DNA from: Candidatus Latescibacterota bacterium
GTDB taxonomy: Bacteria; Latescibacterota; UBA2968; UBA8231
DNA: 64,000 nt
NCBI GenBank assembly: GCA_965208105.1
Contig: OZ242318.1
Location: 3,968,001-4,032,000 of the forward strand
Reading direction: 5' to 3'
The translations under genes and the position numbers were made by a program. A model generated the notes under the pieces. That model was not told the origin of the DNA, ran no database searches, and worked only from the letters and a program-made list of their open reading frames with translations. Numbering within the stretch: the first letter of the stretch is position 1; every line of letters begins with the position of its first letter. Of this stretch, positions 10,701 to 64,000 are shown piece by piece.

Positions 10701-10866
10701 TAGTGTCCCGTCGCAGAGATAGGTTGACGAAATTGGGCCGCCGAGGCGCCAGGCTCACAAGGCGCCTGAGCGAGTCGTACCAATGGTGTACGGCGAGTGA
10801 AGGCAACGCCGTGAGCCGGGATGGATCGGCGGAATAATGGCGACATATTTCTGCGACGGGATACTA
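10701..10866 (+). mobile_element. MITE copy 2 (full, 162 bp plus flanking TA)
   Basis: TIRs GTGTCCCGTCGCAGAGAT / ATTTCTGCGACGGGATAC with TA on both sides. Reconstructed empty site is C-TA-G. Confidence 0.92.
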
Positions 10867-12385: not shown

Positions 12386-12551
12386 TAGTGTCCCGTCGCG
12401 GAGCTAGGTTGACCAAATTGGGCCGCTGAGGCGCCCGGCTCGCAAGGCGCCTGAGCGAGTCGTCCCGGTGGTGTACGGCGAGTGAAGGCAACGCCCTGAG
12501 CCGGGATGGATCTGCGGAAAGATGGCGACAAATTTCTGCGACGGGACCCTA
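12386..12551 (+). mobile_element. MITE copy 3 (full, most diverged)
   Basis: TA-GTGTCCCGTCGCGGAG...TCTGCGACGGGACCC-TA. The CTA at 12549-12551 is the stop of the adjacent oxidoreductase. Confidence 0.9.
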
Positions 12552-29702: not shown

Positions 29703-30725
29703 ATGCTCCGCTCTCTCATGGTTCTGGCCATTTCAGCCGCAATGACAGGTCTCCTCGGAGCCCTGGACATCGAGGAGCAGTTGAGCCTGGAAAGAGAGCA
29801 GGACCTGGTCATCGAAGGCCGTGTCGACTGGGGAGAAAACCTGCTCATCGCCTACGGAGAAAGTGCTGCGACCGAGGCGTTGACCGATCCGGTACAGCGG
29901 CGCTTGATGGGGTTTCGCGCCGCCAAAGCGGCGGCTTACCGCAATCTGCTGGTGCTTGCCGGGGAGGTGCAGATTGACGCAGGGACCAAGGCAGGGGCGG
30001 CGATGGCGGGCAACGACACCCTGCGCTCGCGCATTGCCGCAATTGTCCGGGCTGCCCGTGTGAAACCCGGAAGCAATCGCGAAGTCGACGGAGCCTATCG
30101 CCTTGCCCTGCAACTCAATCTTCTCGACGATTTTGCCGATGCCGTGCTGTCCGTCCTGACATCCGACCCGCATGGATGGGCATTCGCATCAGGCTTGGCT
30201 GACACCCTGGCACCGTATATTCCGGCAGCGCCCTATAGCGGCCTGCTGGTCGATGCGCGCGGCCTCGCCGTGAGGCCCTGCATGGCACCGCGCATCCTTG
30301 GGAAGAACGGCGGTGTCCTCTACAGCGCCGGATCGGTCGAACGCCACCAGGCTACTCGCATGGGCGTGGTAGGATACTACGATGACATGGAGGAGGCTGC
30401 TTCCAGTGACCGCCTGGGAGGGGAGGAAGCAGATCCCCTGATTGTCAAAGCCGAGGAAGTAGCGGGATTATTCAACGGCGATGTGGTACTGGGCGACGAA
30501 GATGCCCTTCGCCTATACCTGGCCAGCGAAGAATCCAACTTGCTGGGCGGATGCCGGGTCGCTCTCGTTATTGGTCCGGAGCCGGTATCGATTGATTCAA
30601 CTTTGGCCGATTCCACCTTGCTGGACTCCACTCTTCTCGACTCCACCCTGCAGATTTTCCCTCACTTGGAGGAGAACATCCATGACCTTCCAGGAGAAGC
30701 TGGCGCAGGCAGTTGCCCGGAATAA
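29703..30725 (+). CDS. Exported protein (LPP20-like N-terminal region)
   Basis: Signal peptide; GRVDW, RAAK.AAYRNL, YSGLLVDARGL..RP.MAPRI; C-terminal DSTLx repeats. Confidence 0.7.
   Translation: MLRSLMVLAISAAMTGLLGALDIEEQLSLEREQDLVIEGRVDWGENLLIAYGESAATEALTDPVQRRLMGFRAAKAAAYRNLLVLAGEVQIDAGTKAGAAMAGNDTLRSRIAAIVRAARVKPGSNREVDGAYRLALQLNLLDDFADAVLSVLTSDPHGWAFASGLADTLAPYIPAAPYSGLLVDARGLAVRPCMAPRILGKNGGVLYSAGSVERHQATRMGVVGYYDDMEEAASSDRLGGEEADPLIVKAEEVAGLFNGDVVLGDEDALRLYLASEESNLLGGCRVALVIGPEPVSIDSTLADSTLLDSTLLDSTLQIFPHLEENIHDLPGEAGAGSCPE
30594..30653 (+). repeat. Four degenerate 15-bp tandem repeats encoding DSTLA-DSTLL-DSTLL-DSTLQ
   Basis: gattcaactttggcc gattccaccttgctg gactccactcttctc gactccaccctgcag. 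Confidence 0.85.
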
Positions 30726-31536
30726 CTCGCTGCTCTGCATCGGGCTGGACCCGGACCCGCGACAACTGCCGCAAAGGGCGCAAACCGAGGAGAATCCCGT
30801 CCTCTACTTCAATCGCCGGATTATAGAGGCCACCTCCGACCTGGTTTGCGCATACAAACCCAATTTCGCCTTCTATGGTGCTCTCGGGTCAGAGGGCTGG
30901 CCCACCCTGCGAGCGACCCTGTCCCATGTGCCTCCTTCCATTCCCATCGTCATCGACGCCAAGGTGGGAGATATCGGCTATACTGCGGAAAAGTACGCCA
31001 CCATGTTCTTCCATGAGCTCGGCGCCGATGCCGTGACGGCAAACCCCTACATGGGCGGGGACGCGGTAGCTCCCCTGCTGCAGTATGCGGACAAAGGCGT
31101 CTTTCTCCTCTGCCTGACTTCCAACGATGGAGCCCGGGACTTCGAAACGCTGTCGCTGGGGGACCGTCCACTCTACGAACATGTCGCCCTCAAGGCGGGA
31201 TCGTGGAATCGGAACGGCAACTGCGGATTGGTGGTTGGCGCCACCCGGTCAGATGCCATGGAGAAAATTCGCTCCCTGGCTCCAGATCTGCCTTTTCTCG
31301 TTCCTGGAGTTGGAGCTCAGGGCGGCGACCTGACGACTGCCGTGTCCTGCGGCCAGGATGGAGCCGGAGGTGGAGTGCTGATCAACGCTTCACGTTCCGT
31401 TCTCTACGCCGGGAATGGTGACGACTTCGCCATGCTTGCGCGCCAGGCGGCCTGCAAGTTGCGCGACGAGATAAACCGCTGTCGCACCCGAGTTGGGGAG
31501 GGGCTTGCGACCACGAGGATTGGTGTGTCAGGATGA
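30682..31536 (+). CDS. pyrF: Orotidine-5'-phosphate decarboxylase
   Basis: LCIGLDP, YKPNFAFY, DAKVGDIG.T (DxKxxD), LVVGAT, PGVGAQGG, NASRS. Confidence 0.96.
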   Translation: MTFQEKLAQAVARNNSLLCIGLDPDPRQLPQRAQTEENPVLYFNRRIIEATSDLVCAYKPNFAFYGALGSEGWPTLRATLSHVPPSIPIVIDAKVGDIGYTAEKYATMFFHELGADAVTANPYMGGDAVAPLLQYADKGVFLLCLTSNDGARDFETLSLGDRPLYEHVALKAGSWNRNGNCGLVVGATRSDAMEKIRSLAPDLPFLVPGVGAQGGDLTTAVSCGQDGAGGGVLINASRSVLYAGNGDDFAMLARQAACKLRDEINRCRTRVGEGLATTRIGVSG

Positions 31537-31560
31537 GCCCATCCCCGGTCGAGGAGCCGG

Positions 31561-31609
31561 AGGCCGGTTTCCATCTGTTCCGGGTGCGTCGTGGAGCGGC
31601 CTCGGTCTA
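31561..31609 (-). other. Distal part of an orphan IS1111-type non-coding (bridge RNA-like) scaffold
   Basis: Reverse complement TAGACCGAGGCCGCTCCACGACGCACCCGGAACAG aligns to the IS non-coding region from 32989 (TAGATTGAGGCCGCTCCGCGACGCACCCAGGACAG). Confidence 0.8.
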
Positions 31610-31723
31610 GACCTTATGTATTGACGGAGATATGAAAGACCTCCTCCGACTCGGTTGTCGGGGGTTATCTTTGGGAAAACGGAGTTCACCCAAAGACCTA
31701 TCCCCAGCGAGAAGGAGGAGGCC

Positions 31724-32863
31724 ATGCGTAAATCTACGAAATTCGTCGCCTTGGACATACATAAAGATTCGATCACCGTCGCCCTGGCCGGTGAAGGCCG
31801 AAAAGGGCCAGACCTGTATGGAACGATACCGTCTACGGGCGCCGCGTTGTCCAAGCTGGCGGGCCAACTGGCCCGTGGTGGGACCTCGTTGCGGTTTTGC
31901 TACGAGGCCGGACCCTGCGGCTACGGCGTCTACCGTCAGCTCACAGCCCTGGGGCACGCCTGCACGGTGGTGGCGCCCTCGCTGATCCCGCGTCGGCCGG
32001 GCGACCGCATCAAGACCGACCGCCGCGATGCTGTGTCTCTGGTGCGGCTTTTCCAACACGGCGAGTTGACCCCCGTGTGGGTGCCCGACGAAGCGCAGGA
32101 GGCGATGCGCGATCTGGAGCGCTGCCGGGAAGACTTCAAGCACGCCGAGCGCCGCGTGCGCCAGCGGCTGAACAGCTTCTTGCAGCGCCACGGCCGGATC
32201 TACTCCGGGCGCAGTCGCTGGACCCAAGCCCACTTTCGCTGGCTGCAGACCCAGCGCTTCGATCATCCGGCCCAGCAGATCGTCTTTCAGGAATACGTGG
32301 ACGCGGTACAGGAAGCCCAAGGTCGGATCCAGGGGTTGGACCAGGCCCTGCAGCAGGCGCTGGAGGGATGGTCTTTGGAAGGGGAGACGCGGGCTATGAG
32401 GGCGCTGCGCGGGGTAGACACGCTCACCGCGGTTACGACCCTGGCCGAGTTGGGGGACCTCACCCGCTTTGACTCGCCGCGCCAACTGATGGCCTTCGTC
32501 GGTCTGGTCCCCAGCGAGCATTCCAGCGGCTCCCGCCAAAAGCGAGGGGCGATCACCAAGGCGGGCAACGCCCACGTGCGGCGCGTGCTGGTGGAAGCCG
32601 CCTGGTGCTATCGCTTTCCCGCCCGCAAGACGGCCGCCTTGCAACGACGCGCCGAACAGACCGCACCCCCCATACAGGCCATCGCCTGGAAGGCACAGAA
32701 ACGCCTGTGTGGGCGCTATCGACGGCTGAGTGGGCGAGGGATGCCGAAAAACAAAGTCTGCACCGCGATCGCGCGGGAGCTTTTGGGTTTCATCTGGGCC
32801 ATCGCCTGGGAGCAGAAACGCCCCGGCCGCCTCGTGGCCAGGAGGCCTCGGATCGCCGCCTGA
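31724..32863 (+). CDS. IS110 family DEDD transposase/recombinase
   Basis: ALDIHK, CYEAG, KTDRRDA (DEDD) and GLVPSEHSSG (catalytic Ser); SD AAGGAGGAGG. Confidence 0.97.
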   Translation: MRKSTKFVALDIHKDSITVALAGEGRKGPDLYGTIPSTGAALSKLAGQLARGGTSLRFCYEAGPCGYGVYRQLTALGHACTVVAPSLIPRRPGDRIKTDRRDAVSLVRLFQHGELTPVWVPDEAQEAMRDLERCREDFKHAERRVRQRLNSFLQRHGRIYSGRSRWTQAHFRWLQTQRFDHPAQQIVFQEYVDAVQEAQGRIQGLDQALQQALEGWSLEGETRAMRALRGVDTLTAVTTLAELGDLTRFDSPRQLMAFVGLVPSEHSSGSRQKRGAITKAGNAHVRRVLVEAAWCYRFPARKTAALQRRAEQTAPPIQAIAWKAQKRLCGRYRRLSGRGMPKNKVCTAIARELLGFIWAIAWEQKRPGRLVARRPRIAA

Positions 32864-32916
32864 TAAGCTCATCGTCTCAGAAGCCGGCATAGGACCTTTG
32901 CTCATGTAAATCGAAA

Positions 32917-33086
32917 CGGGACAGAAGGGACCGGTCAGGAGAATCCTCGAAGACACTATGAGGCGCCTATCAGGCTGACCCTCGACTCTAGATTGAGGCC
33001 GCTCCGCGACGCACCCAGGACAGGCGGTAACCAACCCGCGAATATCAGTCGGATCAACCGTCGCTACAGCGTCCCTTCTGTTCCCG
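32917..33086 (+). ncRNA. Predicted bridge RNA/seekRNA of the IS1111 element
   Basis: Closing helix CGGGACAGAAGGGA/TCCCTTCTGTTCCCG. Loop 1 closed by CCTCGA/TTGAGG holds GACACT and TCTAG; loop 2 closed by GCGACG/CGTCGC holds ATATCAG. Ends are approximate. Confidence 0.75.
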
Positions 33087-33134
33087 AACAAACTCATGCA
33101 AAGATAACACCCGAAATGACCACCCCGGAGGGGG

Positions 33135-33140
33135 TTGACA
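33135..33140 (+). promoter_or_regulatory. Outward-facing -35 box at the IS right end (circle-junction promoter)
   Basis: TTGACA just inside the right IR. In the circle a weak -10 (GACCTT) falls at 17-nt spacing. Confidence 0.55.
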
Positions 33141-33157
33141 ACCGTCAATACATATCA

Positions 33158-33321
33158 GTGTCCCGTCGCAGAAATATGTCGCCATTTTTCCGCCGATCCA
33201 TCCCGGCTCACGGCGTTGCCTTCACTCGCCGTACACCACTGGTACGACTCGCTCAGGCGCCTTGTGAGCCGGGCGCCTCGGCGGCCCAATTGGGTCAACC
33301 TATCTCTGCGACGGGACACTA
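33158..33321 (-). mobile_element. MITE copy 4 (full, inverted); outer CTAG split by the IS1111
   Basis: GTGTCCCGTCGCAGAAAT...ATCTCTGCGACGGGACAC-TA. Removing the IS restores CTAGTGTCCCG. Confidence 0.92.
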
Positions 33322-33432
33322 ACTTCGAAGGTCAGCCTGAAGGGCGCCTCATAGTGCAGTCGAGGATTCTCCTGACCGGTCCCTTCTGTTCTCCTTCGAT
33401 CTACATGTTCAAGGTCCTATGCCTGGTTCTGA
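33320..33432 (-). other. Proximal part of the orphan bridge RNA-like scaffold
   Basis: Reverse complement shares ACAGAAGGGACCGGTCAGGAGAATCCTCGA, ATGAGGCGCC and TCAGGCTGACC with 32877-32990. Confidence 0.85.
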
Positions 33433-33567
33433 TCGGCTTGATGGGCCGCGCCGAGGCCCGGGAAATCGTGGGTCGCAACGCAACCGCCGGCAAGTTGGTG
33501 GTCGAGGTTCCATAAACGACCGGGTCTCACTGGTGATCTTTACACACTCCAACAAAGCAGGCAAACC

Positions 33568-34407
33568 ATGACTGAAGAAGAGTTGTACCTGTTCGATACG
33601 CTCGGTTTTCTCCGGGTGGAAAACGTGCTCGACGAGGAGACCGTTGCCCAAGCCCAAAGGGGGGCGCAGAAGATCGTTGACGACTGCGGGCACCTCCTGG
33701 AACAACCGCCGGGATCCGGCTACGGGGACAAGTACAAAAACGCGATTGTCCACGACAAGGTGTTGGAGCGGATCGCCTATTCGCCGGTCATGCTGGATTA
33801 CGCCTGCCACCTGACCAACAATATGCCGCGCCTCCTGGACGGCACCATGATGGTCCAGAATTCCGACCACGGGTTCCACAACTTCCATCTGCGCAAGGAT
33901 ATCCTCAGTGAAATGCACGAGGACGCCCCGCGCTTTTATACCGACGTGGTTCACCGCCGGATTTATTGTGACTGGGCCACCTTCTTCGTCTACCTGACCG
34001 ACGTGCGCCCGGGGGACGGGGGCCTGCTGGTGGTGCCCGGAGCCCACAGGGCCAGCTTCATCTATCCCCCCGAGCTGTTCTATGCGAAAGACGCCTATCC
34101 GGTGGACCCGGAAGAGCGTCAAAAACTGGGATTCATCAACGTCACCGCCAACGCGGGGGACATGATCATCATGCCGCTGCGCCTGAACCACGCGGCCCTG
34201 CCCTGGCTTCCGGTGGACCGGGACCGGATCTTGATGTTCTACACCTACCGGCCCCAGTTCTACTGCTCCGAGCCTACCGACCAATGGTTGGCCGCCGCCG
34301 CCGCCGCCGGCATCCAGCTGGATGCCGAGACCATCGAGCTGGCCTCGATGAAGGAGAAGGGAGAGCTGAAGGATATCGTCAAGAGCCACCTCGGCATCGA
34401 CGCATGA
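33568..34407 (+). CDS. PhyH family dioxygenase-like protein
   Basis: YLFDTLGFLRVENVL, YLTDV.PGDGGL.VVPGAH, AGDMIIM...HA, R.LMFY.Y. Confidence 0.85.
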   Translation: MTEEELYLFDTLGFLRVENVLDEETVAQAQRGAQKIVDDCGHLLEQPPGSGYGDKYKNAIVHDKVLERIAYSPVMLDYACHLTNNMPRLLDGTMMVQNSDHGFHNFHLRKDILSEMHEDAPRFYTDVVHRRIYCDWATFFVYLTDVRPGDGGLLVVPGAHRASFIYPPELFYAKDAYPVDPEERQKLGFINVTANAGDMIIMPLRLNHAALPWLPVDRDRILMFYTYRPQFYCSEPTDQWLAAAAAAGIQLDAETIELASMKEKGELKDIVKSHLGIDA

Positions 34408-34702: not shown

Positions 34703-36679
34703 ATGAAGCTGGAACCGAACCGGGATGAGACCCCTCGCATCACCCTGCGGGGGTTGGTTCTGGGCCTCCTGACCATTGCCGCCACCTTCTACTTTTACAT
34801 CGGCGAGATTCAGGGAACGGGGATGCTGGGCCATGCAGTGAGCTCCCAGCTTCCGGTGGTGGTGTACGTTCCCTTCGTCCTGTGGCTCTTCCTGAACGTA
34901 GTGGCGAAACATCTGTGTCCCCGGCTGGCGCTGCGCCGGGGGGAATTGCTGACCATCTTCGGGATGCTCTGGGTGGTGGGCACGATTCCGGGCTACGGCT
35001 GGATGGGGTACTGGGTGCTCACGCTGGCGGCGCCGGCGTTCTACGATTCCGCCGAAAATCAGTGGACTGAGATCCTTTTCGACTTCCTGCCCTGGCACGT
35101 CTTTCCCGACCCCTCGGCGCGGGTCATCGACACCTTCTGGCTCGGCCTGCCGGAAGGTGCGCCGGTGCCCTGGGACGGTTGGATCGGGGCGACGGGGCAG
35201 TGGTTGAGTGTTTCGGTGGCCATGGTTGGGTTCGGCCTCTGCATGGTTGTTCTGCTGCAAAGGCAATGGGAAGCCGGGGAGAAGTTGACCTTTCCCCTGG
35301 CGCAGCTCCCGTTGGACCTGACCGCCGGATTCGACGGCCCCCGCCGGATGCCGGCGATCTTCCACTCGCGTCTGTTCTGGATCGGATTCGCCGCTGTTTT
35401 CCTCCCCGTCCTGTACAACATCGCCACTTACTTCATGGCCGGCCTGCCGCGGATCGGCATCTACTGGGATCTCTACAACATCCGCCTGGGAGAGGGATTC
35501 CCGACTCTGCACTTTCGCATCATGCCGCTGGTGGTAGCGGTAACCTACCTCTGTCCCCTCGATATTCTGGCCAGCATGTTCCTCTTTCACCTCCTGGCGA
35601 TTCTCAAGGGGGCGGCCATGACGCGCATCGGCTTTACCGTCGGCACCTCCGGGGAGCCGCTGCATTGGAACGAGATCCTGCACCTGGAAAGTTATGGCGC
35701 CCTCATCTTCATTGGGCTCTGGACCATCTGGCTGGCCCGAGGGCATTTGCGCGCCGTCTGGCGGCAAGTGCGATCGGGCGCCGGCAGAGGTGCAGAGGTC
35801 TCCCGCTACCGCTGGGCGCTGTCCGGTTTGGCGATCAGCGGCGGCTATGTGCTGATCTGGATGGTGGCGATCGGCATTAGCCTGAAGGCGGCCCTGCTGA
35901 TTTTTTCCATAGCGGTCCTCACCTACCTGGTGGTAGTCAAACTGATCGCCGCAACCGGCTGCGCCTATCTGCTCACCGACCCCGGGCATATCAAGGGAAT
36001 CACCTTCGTAGACCAGCTGTTGGGCACCGCCCTCCTGTCCCCTCGCAGCTATGTCGGCTTCCGCCTGTTCAGCAGCACCACCTTTTTCGGCAACCTGCGC
36101 ATTCCTGCCTGGCCTTCCCTCCCCCACCTGCTGCGCATATTCTCCATGAAGCGACAACCGGGATGGATCACGGCACTGGTATTGGCCGCTTTCCCGGTGG
36201 GCTTTCTGGTGGCCGCATGGGCGACCCTGGAGATCGCCTACACCGAGCAGGCCCTGGTCTTCTTTTCCGACAGCGTCGCACCGGGATACAGCGAGACCGC
36301 GCGCAACCTGAACAACCCGAAAACATCCGATCTCGGACGGTGGCTCGTATTCCTCGCCGGCGTCGCGGAGTCGGCGGTGCTGGCCCTGTTGCGGGCGCGC
36401 TTCCACTGGTTTCCGTTGCACCCGCTCGGGGTCGCATTTCAGTACACCATCGTCGGCATCGTATTCTGGTTCAGCCTGTTTCTGGTTTGGGCGGTGAAGG
36501 TGTCGCTGTTGCGCTACGGAGGCAAAGCGGCCTACCTCGCCGGCAAGCCGTTCTTTTACGGCCTGGCGGTGGGGTACGTGAGCGGGATCATCCTCTCGGT
36601 CGGGGTCGACTTCATCTGGTTCCCCGCCGCCGGCCACAACGTCCATTCCTGGTTCGTCGAGATCAAGCCGTTGATCTAG
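34703..36679 (+). CDS. DUF6785/DUF6784-type polytopic membrane protein (putative transporter)
   Basis: ITLRGLVLG, L.RGELL, RQW...EKLTFPLAQLP, RF.WFPLHPLG, K..LLRYGG...Y...KPFF.GL. Confidence 0.8.
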   Translation: MKLEPNRDETPRITLRGLVLGLLTIAATFYFYIGEIQGTGMLGHAVSSQLPVVVYVPFVLWLFLNVVAKHLCPRLALRRGELLTIFGMLWVVGTIPGYGWMGYWVLTLAAPAFYDSAENQWTEILFDFLPWHVFPDPSARVIDTFWLGLPEGAPVPWDGWIGATGQWLSVSVAMVGFGLCMVVLLQRQWEAGEKLTFPLAQLPLDLTAGFDGPRRMPAIFHSRLFWIGFAAVFLPVLYNIATYFMAGLPRIGIYWDLYNIRLGEGFPTLHFRIMPLVVAVTYLCPLDILASMFLFHLLAILKGAAMTRIGFTVGTSGEPLHWNEILHLESYGALIFIGLWTIWLARGHLRAVWRQVRSGAGRGAEVSRYRWALSGLAISGGYVLIWMVAIGISLKAALLIFSIAVLTYLVVVKLIAATGCAYLLTDPGHIKGITFVDQLLGTALLSPRSYVGFRLFSSTTFFGNLRIPAWPSLPHLLRIFSMKRQPGWITALVLAAFPVGFLVAAWATLEIAYTEQALVFFSDSVAPGYSETARNLNNPKTSDLGRWLVFLAGVAESAVLALLRARFHWFPLHPLGVAFQYTIVGIVFWFSLFLVWAVKVSLLRYGGKAAYLAGKPFFYGLAVGYVSGIILSVGVDFIWFPAAGHNVHSWFVEIKPLI

Positions 36680-36753
36680 TGTCGCTTTGCTGTTTAGTTT
36701 TGTTGCGGTTGAGTCAAGTGCAACGCCAAACGCCATATGGAGGTGGCGCCAAA

Positions 36754-62770: not shown

Positions 62771-62936
62771 TAGTGTCCCGTCGCAGAGATAGGTTGACGA
62801 AATTAGGCCGCCGAGGCGGCAGGCTCACAAGGCGCCTGAGCGAGTCGTACCAGTAGTGTACGGCGAGTGAAGGCAACGCCGTGAGCCGGAATGGATCGGC
62901 GGAATAATGGTGACATATTTCTGCGGCGGGACACTA
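62771..62936 (+). mobile_element. MITE copy 6 (full)
   Basis: TA-GTGTCCCGTCGCAGAGAT...TCTGCGGCGGGACAC-TA. The CTA at 62934-62936 is the M16 peptidase stop. Confidence 0.92.
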
Positions 62937-64000
62937 GAACCCAAATATGTCCTCCAGGTCCAACTCGACGATGCTCCCGTGTCGGGCCAGGTCCTCCAGG
63001 TCGATCTTGCTCCTGTCTCCCACGATGGAAATCAGCCGGGGGCGGTTCCGGATATGGTCGCGGTGGAATCCCAGCATCGCTTCCAGCGAAGATCGCTGAA
63101 GTTCCTCGAAGCGCTTGGCACGCGGGTCGATCGGGACCTCCTGGCGCTCCCAGGTGCGCACCGCGCCCAGGACCTGGCGAAACCCGAGGCGAGAGGTGCG
63201 GTAGTCGTTTAGCAGGGCTTGCCGGGCGGCCTCGAAGCGCTCTTCGGAGACCGGGGGGTGATCGAGGAGGTCGAGAAAAACCTCCACGGCCTCCATGGTC
63301 TTGTCCGCCTGGCAGCCTACGACTCCGACCATGAGGCCGGGCTCCGCCTTGCGCTTGCCGTGAAGGTAGCGCGCTCCGGCAGAGTAGGCCAGGGCGCGCG
63401 CTTCGCGAAGTTCCTGAAATACCACTCCGGCCATGCCGCCCGCAAAGTACTCGTTGTAGAGTTGTATGAACGGGCGCAGACCCTCCTCGTAGGGACCGTC
63501 TCCGGATTCGATCCGCACCAGGGCCTGGGCCATCTCCTTGTCGAAGAAATAGGTTTCGTTTGCCGCGGGCAGGCGGGTATTCAGGACCTGGTAGGGAGGA
63601 GGCGGTTGCAATTCTCCTTCCATCCTGTAACTCTGTTCAAGGTGGTCGAGGAGCTCGTTCAGGGTCAGGGACCCGGTATAGCTCAGGGCGTGCTCGAAGG
63701 TCAGAAGGCCGCCGATCAACCGGTGGAGTTCCTGCCCGCGCAGCTCCTGAAGTTCAGCATTGGAGAGGATGCGGCGGAAGTAGGACTGATCGCCCCAGCG
63801 GTTGAACTGGTAGAGTGCCCGGCTGATGGTGCGATTGTCCTTTCGGGCGTCGGCTCGTTCCTTGAGGATGATGCTGACCAGTTCTTCGAATACAGCCTCC
63901 TCGGCCGCCGGCCGCTGCAGGAATTCCATCAGCAGGGCGAGAGAAGCTCCAAAGTTTTCGTCGAGCCCGGCGATGGTGACGGTCGTTTCGTGGTCGCCGA
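62934..64000 (-). CDS. M16 (insulinase) family peptidase, C-terminal part (5'-partial)
   Basis: YNEYFAGGM.GVVFQELREARALAYSA, QADKT; frame continues past the window edge. Confidence 0.88.
   Translation of the reverse strand, partial: GDHETTVTIAGLDENFGASLALLMEFLQRPAAEEAVFEELVSIILKERADARKDNRTISRALYQFNRWGDQSYFRRILSNAELQELRGQELHRLIGGLLTFEHALSYTGSLTLNELLDHLEQSYRMEGELQPPPPYQVLNTRLPAANETYFFDKEMAQALVRIESGDGPYEEGLRPFIQLYNEYFAGGMAGVVFQELREARALAYSAGARYLHGKRKAEPGLMVGVVGCQADKTMEAVEVFLDLLDHPPVSEERFEAARQALLNDYRTSRLGFRQVLGAVRTWERQEVPIDPRAKRFEELQRSSLEAMLGFHRDHIRNRPRLISIVGDRSKIDLEDLARHGSIVELDLEDIFGF

Follow-up and report, generated by a model that had tools for sequence, protein, structure and literature searches.

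An IS1111-type insertion sequence with a predicted guide RNA matching the termini of a MITE in a Latescibacterota genome

RNA-guided target choice is established for insertion sequences (IS) of the IS1111 and IS110 families (PMC11187229 and PMC11208160). Members of the IS1111 family retarget naturally through changes in a loop of this RNA and are recognized by 11-13 bp subterminal repeats, by asymmetric terminal extensions (7 bp left, 3 bp right), by a non-coding region downstream of the gene, and by transposases of 330-350 amino acids with the motif GL-P----S(t)G in the C-terminal domain (PMC11187229). For 93% of IS1111-group elements, a bridge RNA has been predicted in the right end (Durrant et al. 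2024, PMC11208160), and in Coxiella burnetii 20 of 21 IS1111 copies lie in QMITE2, a miniature inverted-repeat transposable element (MITE) (Wachter et al. 2018, PMC5896051). Here we describe an IS of this kind in a 64,000-nucleotide stretch of the genome of a Candidatus Latescibacterota bacterium (assembly GCA_965208105.1, contig OZ242318.1, positions 3,968,001-4,032,000 of the forward strand), referred to below as the window and numbered from its first base. With a probability that we put at about 0.9, this is an active-looking IS1111 element whose recombinase would be guided by RNA to the termini of a MITE.

The element and its junction with a MITE

The IS occupies positions 31609-33156 of the plus strand (1548 bp, with one copy of the AG core counted at the left) and is complete; the same ends delimit all 12 copies found in the genome. 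As read from the sequence, the left end consists of a 7-bp terminal extension, AGACCTT (31609-31615, its AG being the core), followed by the 12-bp subterminal inverted repeat ATGTATTGACGG (31616-31627), which is the perfect reverse complement of the right repeat, CCGTCAATACAT (12 bp, 33142-33153). The right end is closed by the 3-bp extension ATC (33154-33156). The core of IS621, by comparison, is CT. A gene for a DEDD transposase, or recombinase, of 379 amino acids runs from 31724 to 32863 (+) and leaves 293 bp of non-coding DNA downstream (32864-33156) against 115 bp upstream (31609-31723). Its product matches the Pfam domains PF01548 (DEDD_Tnp_IS110; 49.4 bits, cut-off 29) and PF02371 (80 bits, cut-off 21.3) as well as the NCBIfam model NF033542, 'IS110 family RNA-guided transposase' (263.4 bits, cut-off 140), and contains the stretch GLVPSEHSSG, which fits the IS1111 motif. 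The domains, the subterminal repeats, the 7- and 3-bp extensions and the downstream non-coding region thus agree with the identity given to the element in an earlier, sequence-only reading of the window, and its membership of the IS1111 family, within the broad-sense IS110 family, is supported. The transposase is longer than the 330-350 amino acids described for the family; the homologs collected below are similar in length and share the arrangement of subterminal repeats, and we read the 379 amino acids as a subgroup trait and no ground for excluding membership.

A census by BLAST over the genome, a single 4.85-Mb contig that contains the window, returned 12 copies at 95.5-100% identity, plus fragments. 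Seven copies are at least 99.48% identical to that in the window, and the full 379-amino-acid frame is kept in 10 of the 12, one of the others being cut to 254 amino acids and one internally deleted. All 12 are flanked as T/AG-IS-ATC/AGTG, where the slashes mark the ends of the IS and one AG belongs to it. Ten of them lie at a MITE terminus in the arrangement YCT/AG..IS..ATC/AGTGTCCCGTCGCAG, seven at one end of the MITE and three at the other; in all ten the right end of the IS adjoins the MITE, and the left flanks are all different. Across the 12 copies, insertion is therefore site- and orientation-specific and proceeds without true target duplication. The same junction is present in the window: removing 31609-33156 leaves TCT (31606-31608)-AG-TGTC (33159-33162) followed by CCG, with AG at both junctions (31609-31610 and 33157-33158). 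The left target flank TCT ends in T 31608, the first base of the TA duplication of the MITE, which the IS has split; the core and right target flank, AG-TGTC (33157-33162, +), begin with A 33157, the second base of that TA. The sequence-only reading had described this excision and the restored MITE end with coordinates that are all correct, and the restored end, NCTAGTGTCCCG, occurs 65 times unoccupied in the genome. The tabulation of the flanks of the other copies, which that reading had proposed as a check, gives the same junction in 10 of 12.

The MITE itself spans 33158-33319 in the window (162 bp, no strand assigned), with terminal inverted repeats GTGTCCCGTCGCAGA; G 33158 is its first base and the second TA follows at 33320-33321. 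The genome holds 134 homologous intervals, 98 of them near full length. TA precedes 140 of 198 MITE termini and C stands at -3 in 149 of 198, giving the flank consensus C-TA-terminus; the MITE hence inserts at CTAG and duplicates TA, which upholds the earlier claim of insertion at TA. IS630 itself prefers CTAG and duplicates TA. Because of the CTAG preference, most MITE ends carry CTAGTGTC: of its 87 vacant occurrences, 72 fall at MITE intervals and 15 outside them, and the shorter word CTAGTG occurs 242 times outside MITE intervals. Both vacant perfect 9-mers pointed out earlier in the window, TCTAGTGTC, exist; the one at 62930-62938 (minus strand) is a MITE end and the one at 36675-36683 lies outside MITEs. 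Further MITE copies in the window lie at 10701-10865, 12386-12550 and 62771-62935, the last carrying the vacant 9-mer at its end.

Occupied and vacant MITE ends differ at position -3. The ten occupied sites have T in four cases, C in six and a purine in none, whereas the 65 vacant NCTAGTGTCCCG sites are divided between pyrimidine (34) and purine (31; one-sided Fisher p = 0.003). In three copies of the IS the guide described below has C at this position, and the flank has C in all three. From TCTAG in the guide, T would be expected at -3; a U at this guide position may accept either T or C, through U-A or U-G pairing with the bottom strand.

An autonomous partner of the MITE was sought in the genome as a pair of termini of the MITE type at transposon-length spacing, and none was found; 13 matches to the DDE_3 domain all lie in elements whose termini are unlike those of the MITE. 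One such element, IS630-like and 1162 bp long with a DDE_3 domain (for example at genome positions 1133588-1134749), is present in nine full copies with the termini CTAGTGC(T/G)CTGTTAA. It is not an obvious parent of the MITE, since the termini diverge after the first few bases. Its copies at 391766 and 756789 directly adjoin a MITE end, and beside one other copy, at about 1135357-1139793, lies a long, internally repetitive stretch built of roughly 700-bp units, 74-81% alike.

One copy and two fragments of the IS call for separate mention. The copy at genome positions 3964227-3966518, just upstream of the window, has mixed flanks: the right one is an internal part of the IS630-like element, which is cut off there, and the left one is unrelated unique DNA. 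A rearrangement between copies, or else an off-target event, seems likelier here than a plain insertion. A degenerate right-end fragment (3931346-3931506, 91% identical) has apparently lost its bottom-strand guide and is followed by AGTGCC, and a solitary left-end fragment of 41 bp lies at 2949481-2949521.

Four of 24 listed public sequencing runs were checked (X1, X5, X7 and X15), all as contigs only. In X1 the IS has a depth of 125.6 compared with 9.5-11.6 for its flanks, which fits about 12 copies. Sponge and coral-reef metagenome runs of several studies include contigs with near-identical IS sequence. One contig of X7, a sponge run from another study, carries the IS with 10 differences and a different left flank, and the 30 bases past its right end match the window MITE.

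The predicted guide RNA and its covariation with the flanks

The region downstream of the transposase gene is predicted to encode a seekRNA, or bridge RNA, at 32917-33086 (+), with an outer stem around two arms, as judged from its fold and from the conservation of its scaffold in 78 homologous loci. The minimum-free-energy fold of 32905-33090 has -65.1 kcal/mol (z -2.43; 2 of 200 shuffles fold equally well) and pairs 32917-32933 with 33069-33086 in the outer stem. In the first arm, CCUCGA (32945-32950) and UUGAGG (32993-32998) close a symmetric 8+8 internal loop, inside which both GACACT (32952-32957) and TCTAG (32987-32991) are unpaired; in the second, GCGACG and CGUCGC close a large internal loop that contains ATATCAG. 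The closing helix and the two unpaired segments had been predicted from the sequence, and folding 32917-33086 had been suggested as a check: both are recovered, with the target-matching segments in the loop and not in stems. Folded alone, the first arm is no more stable than shuffled sequence (z 0.10), so that the structure is supported by conservation and not by energy.

The two sides of the first loop correspond to the two sides of the target. On the 5' side, AGACACTA (32951-32958, +), GACACT complements AG-TGTC of the top strand, and A 32958 complements the T at -1. On the 3' side, ACTCTAGA (32985-32992, +), TCTAG is identical to the left flank plus core, with variants among the copies within the genome. 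The top-strand complement thus stands 5' of the bottom-strand match. Both assignments derive from the fold and from family covariation, of the 5' side with the right flank and of the 3' side with the left flank, the latter being informative at -1 to -3.

This covariation was measured in homologs collected by a scan of one genome per species, which yielded 80 loci with 57-85% amino-acid identity from metagenome-assembled genomes labelled Gemmatimonadota, Latescibacterota, Gammaproteobacteria, Nitrospiraceae, Bryobacterales and others. Nineteen distinct non-coding regions align as a near-invariant scaffold interrupted by short variable blocks that fall exactly at the loop segments, and an nhmmer profile built from this alignment finds the non-coding region in 78 of the 80 loci. 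For the same 19 regions, RNAalifold recovers both arms, with compensatory changes in 7 of 32 pairs. When the window fold is imposed on the homologs, the inner helices GGAG/CUCC, UGAGG/CCUCG, GCGACG/CGUCGC and GCGG/CCGC are each 97-99% paired and the CCUCGA/UUGAGG helix is 82.5% paired, compared with 35-45% in slid controls.

The ends of the IS in the homologs were placed by conserved motifs before guides and flanks were compared, and poorly matching rows (on the right side, for example, L004, L029, L030, L058 and L065) were retained in the counts. Between the reverse complement of the 5' loop side and the five bases that follow the core, 184 of 235 positions agree over 47 distinct pairs (42, 39, 41, 37 and 25 of 47 from +1 to +5); when the pairings are shuffled the figure is 69.4 +/- 7.5 and never exceeds 95 in 2000 trials. 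Between the 3' loop side and the four bases ahead of the core, 158 of 228 positions agree over 57 distinct pairs (17, 35, 50 and 56 of 57 from -4 to -1), compared with 89.8 +/- 5.9 when shuffled. The matches per position point to an effective target of about 3 + 2 + 4 or 5 bases, in agreement with TCT-AG-TGTC. The test across homologs that the sequence-only reading had called for therefore shows the loop segments tracking the flanks, and its central claim, a guide programmed against a MITE terminus, gains from this covariation together with the ten of 12 copies at MITE ends.

The second loop appears to read the ends of the IS itself. The segment ATATCAG at 33042-33048 (+) lies in the internal loop of the second arm and is identical to the right end plus core at 33152-33158, just as had been noted before. 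Among the homologs, the 3' side of this loop holds the right end plus core of its own locus in 17 of 20 distinct rows and follows variant right ends (ATAACAG in L013; ATACCAG in L022, L031 and L076); the exceptions, L036, L052 and L058, have a one-base mismatch each. The earlier reading had found no convincing second donor guide. We propose a candidate at 33017-33022 (+), just 5' of the distal stem, where the window has AGGACA, complementary to the left end AGACCTT at four of seven positions, and most relatives have xxGUCA, complementary to their left end AGACxxx. Across the family, this block and the left end form 127 of 196 Watson-Crick pairs in 28 distinct rows (112.1 +/- 2.8 in shuffles), and the variable left-end positions 5-7 form 46 of 84 (33.1 +/- 2.7); none of 2000 shuffles reaches either value. 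The clearest switches are those of L080 (left end AGAG, guide CUCU) and of the clade of the window element (left end CC, guide GG). Judged by this pairing signal, a second donor guide probably exists in the family; its exact extent is given here only tentatively.

Proposed mechanism and alternative explanations

Based on the above data, we propose that the 293-bp downstream region would yield an RNA that guides the DEDD recombinase. In the first-arm loop, the 5' side would pair with T-AG-TGTC on the top strand and the 3' side with the bottom strand across from TCT-AG, and the loop of the second arm would read the joined ends of the IS, ATATCAG standing for the right end plus core and the weaker segment at 33017-33022 complementing the left end. 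The 9-bp target, TCT/CCT-AG-TGTC, would arise when the MITE of about 162 bp inserts at its preferred CTAG with duplication of TA: the site preference of the MITE would supply the C, the duplication would supply TA, and the inverted repeat GTGTC. An insertion of the MITE would then usually provide two landing sites. The IS would enter between T and A, its right end towards the MITE. The anatomy of the element, the census of its copies and the covariation of the loops with flanks and ends are shown by the sequences; we infer that the guide RNA is expressed, associates with the recombinase and base-pairs with DNA, and that the element moves via a circle.

Several observations weigh against this mechanism. 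No match was returned by an Rfam scan of 31000-34000 with E up to 1, and a scan for sigma-70-like promoters in 31500-33450 found 0 sites. A 32951, with which the 5' guide begins, would call for T at a place where the MITE has C. In the window IS only the four of seven positions given above support the second donor guide, and position 33020 covaries with 33049 inside the RNA (U-A in 13 sequences, A-U in five) and not with the left end, indicating that part of the candidate block forms a short helix in the free RNA; GAC at 33019-33021 can also pair with GUC at 33048-33050. The shuffle controls, moreover, ignore relatedness among the homologs. Two of the 12 copies lie at imperfect, non-MITE sites, CTAGTGGT (GCT-AG-TGGT) and CTAGTGTT (CCT-AG-TGTT), and the guide CCATAG of the copies at genome positions 2701795 and 2923418, two of the three with C at guide position -3, mismatches their own flank CCT-AG at -2. 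The latter would require either that a mismatch is tolerated at -2 or that the RNA of another copy acted in trans; for ISEc11, provision of the seekRNA in trans has been demonstrated (PMC11187229). Lastly, in the contigs of the four runs, which drop rare forms, there was neither an empty site that skips the IS nor the joint of right end 33156 to left end 31609 expected of a circle. As a hint of expression, contigs of an RNA library in one metatranscriptome (X15) cover parts of the gene and 32867-32968, but they may derive from DNA. Upstream of the transposase gene, a terminator-like hairpin followed by a T-rich tail is suggested at 31643-31664 (+) by a consensus scan only.

A first alternative is that the recombinase alone recognizes the inverted repeat of the MITE or the CTAG junction and that the loop matches are incidental. 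Such a reading would be at ease with the two copies whose guide disagrees with their flank, and with the fact that the RNA itself was not directly observed. It is nevertheless very improbable and we reject it, since the loops change with the flanks (184/235 and 158/228) on a near-invariant scaffold and with a related protein, and since published IS1111 relatives require the RNA for movement (PMC11187229).

A second possibility is that IS and MITE move together as one unit and that their adjacency is inherited, as might be supposed from an IS that always sits directly beside a MITE terminus in a fixed orientation. The window site preserves a record that bears on this point. A relic of a related 3' non-coding region lies there on the minus strand in two halves, the first at 33325-33432 (85% identical to IS positions 1269-1377, with the target loop CTGCACTA) and the second at 31566-31608, cut short inside the second arm; the match of the second half, 31611-31566 (-), is 83% identical to IS positions 1379-1424. 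The relic has neither gene nor ends, and this partial minus-strand copy was also found by the scaffold profile. The MITE is located exactly at the TA of the bottom-strand guide of the relic (AAGTTAG), and the TC at -3 and -2 in the left flank of the window IS derives from the relic. When the IS is taken out, and after it the MITE, the halves of the relic meet at the consecutive positions 1377 and 1379. As read from this nesting, the order of events at the site is relic, then MITE, then IS, which rules out a composite unit there and implies two separate insertions. Across the genome, the IS is found at either end of the MITE (seven and three copies), 72 MITE ends with the target word are vacant, and the adjoining MITEs are about 94.6-98% identical to that of the window, yet seven IS copies reach at least 99.48%. 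We therefore reject the composite unit, to which we give hardly any credence.

The relic also allows a prediction of its own: its top-strand guide CTGCACTA predicts the target TAGTGCAG, which resembles TAGTGC, the first six terminal bases of the 1162-bp IS630-like element of this genome. The insertion of IS and MITE is intergenic, between two long plus-strand open frames at 30481-31536 and 33568-34407.

The notion that the IS lands at any CTAG-like site and that copies at MITE ends merely survive better, being harmless there, could appeal to the two copies at non-MITE sites that share only CTAGTG and to the 242 occurrences of this word outside MITEs, but it is scarcely tenable and is rejected, because the pattern is found at 0 of 15 non-MITE CTAGTGTC sites and at none of hundreds of other CTAG sites, the guide specifies the right flank from +1 to +4 in 37-42 of 47 homolog pairs, and near-identical copies argue for recent insertion and not for long-term filtering.

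Relatives of the element and comparison with known systems

Guidance to a MITE terminus may not be peculiar to this genome. The right flank of the IS recurs downstream as an inverted copy in 16 of 67 loci with enough sequence, the window included, and in 14 of the 16 this far copy is followed by TA (the window and 13 homologous loci from nine other genomes). The TA-flanked elements thus preyed upon are mostly 66-164 bp long, with one of 445 bp (L041) and one of 1179 bp (L001); the latter encodes helix-turn-helix and DDE_3 domains and is thus a complete transposon of the IS630 type. The termini of such prey are of at least six kinds in sequence, each matched by the top-strand guide of its IS. 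In the other 51 of the 67 loci, no inverted repeat of the flank was found within about 1.1 kb at up to two mismatches. It is worth adding that in one Longimicrobiales genome four homologous copies (L053, L054, L056 and L057) are identical on both sides, ..ggaacgggta/IS/agggcaaacggtcg.., so that either the target itself is repeated or the IS lies inside a larger repeated unit.

The loci with TA-flanked prey suggest that the clade as a whole prefers such ends of IS630-type elements. Taken further, a whole IS1111-type clade found in several phyla would be specialized on the termini, flanked by TA, of IS630-type transposons and of their MITEs. Its bottom-strand guide would then stay near xCTAG, the site preference that all such prey have in common, and only the top-strand guide would be rewritten upon a switch of MITE family; in the reverse direction, the guide gene would itself contain CTAG or TTAG, the landing site of the prey, as in the relic of the window, whose guide region a MITE has split at that very TA. 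For this extended proposal, with its guide rewriting and its two-way traffic taken jointly, we see roughly even odds. If true, it would amount to a two-way conflict between two classes of mobile elements, written in programmable RNA.

The window element presents a clear, though precedented, case of one mobile element living on another. A programmable recombinase would here have found a harmless and self-renewing target, made anew whenever another mobile element moves. The system also offers a test bed for target rules, since a single genome has ten occupied sites, 72 vacant ones that are nearly identical, and three variants of the guide; the tolerance of U-G at -3 and the number of positions that count on each side can be read from genomes. 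The conserved scaffold together with the 47 and 57 natural guide/flank pairs could serve as a panel for engineering IS1111-type systems.

Among described elements, the closest are ISEc11, ISPa11, ISKpn4 and ISPst6 (Siddiquee et al. 2024, PMC11187229). The window element shares with them the DEDD transposase with its GL-P----SG motif, the 11-13 bp subterminal repeats with 7- and 3-bp extensions, the long downstream non-coding region, the placement of the top-strand complement 5' of the bottom-strand match, and retargeting confined to the loop. It differs in its transposase, 379 instead of 330-350 amino acids long, in a target formed where a MITE terminus meets its TA duplication, and in being known from sequence alone. 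The likeness to the bridge RNAs of IS621 and the IS110 group (PMC11208160) lies in the two loops, one for the target and one for the joined ends of the IS, and in the 2-nucleotide core present in both; unlike that of IS621, however, the RNA of the window element is encoded 3' of the gene, has the order of guides within the loop reversed, and belongs to an element with long subterminal repeats and an AG core.

With respect to the prey, the Coxiella IS1111 is the nearest precedent, its copies being almost exclusively in one MITE (20 of 21, compared with ten of 12 here); its target is a palindrome, the GTAG REP, inside QMITE2, whereas the window IS targets the outermost bases of the MITE, the TA and the preceding C (PMC5896051). 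The sequence-only reading had spoken of a new RNA-guided specificity that parasitizes a TA-inserting MITE: the guide and the insertion at TA stand, and the claim of novelty was too strong in view of QMITE2 (PMC5896051) and of IS1111 members that target terminal inverted repeats. In the literature consulted, targeting of IS630-type or MITE termini by IS1111 or IS110 elements is otherwise undescribed, although supplementary target tables may list a case. What is new is the particular target, TCT/CCT-AG-TGTC, and a site that straddles the MITE terminus, the TA duplication and the preceding C and so exists only after the MITE has inserted; there is a hint, in addition, of a whole clade doing likewise to IS630-type elements. 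A similar habit is reported for IS4321 and IS5075, also of the IS1111 family, which are said to use the inverted repeats of transposons in the Tn21 family as a landing site in one orientation. Their prey is a large transposon of the Tn3 family, whereas that of the window element is a MITE that duplicates TA.

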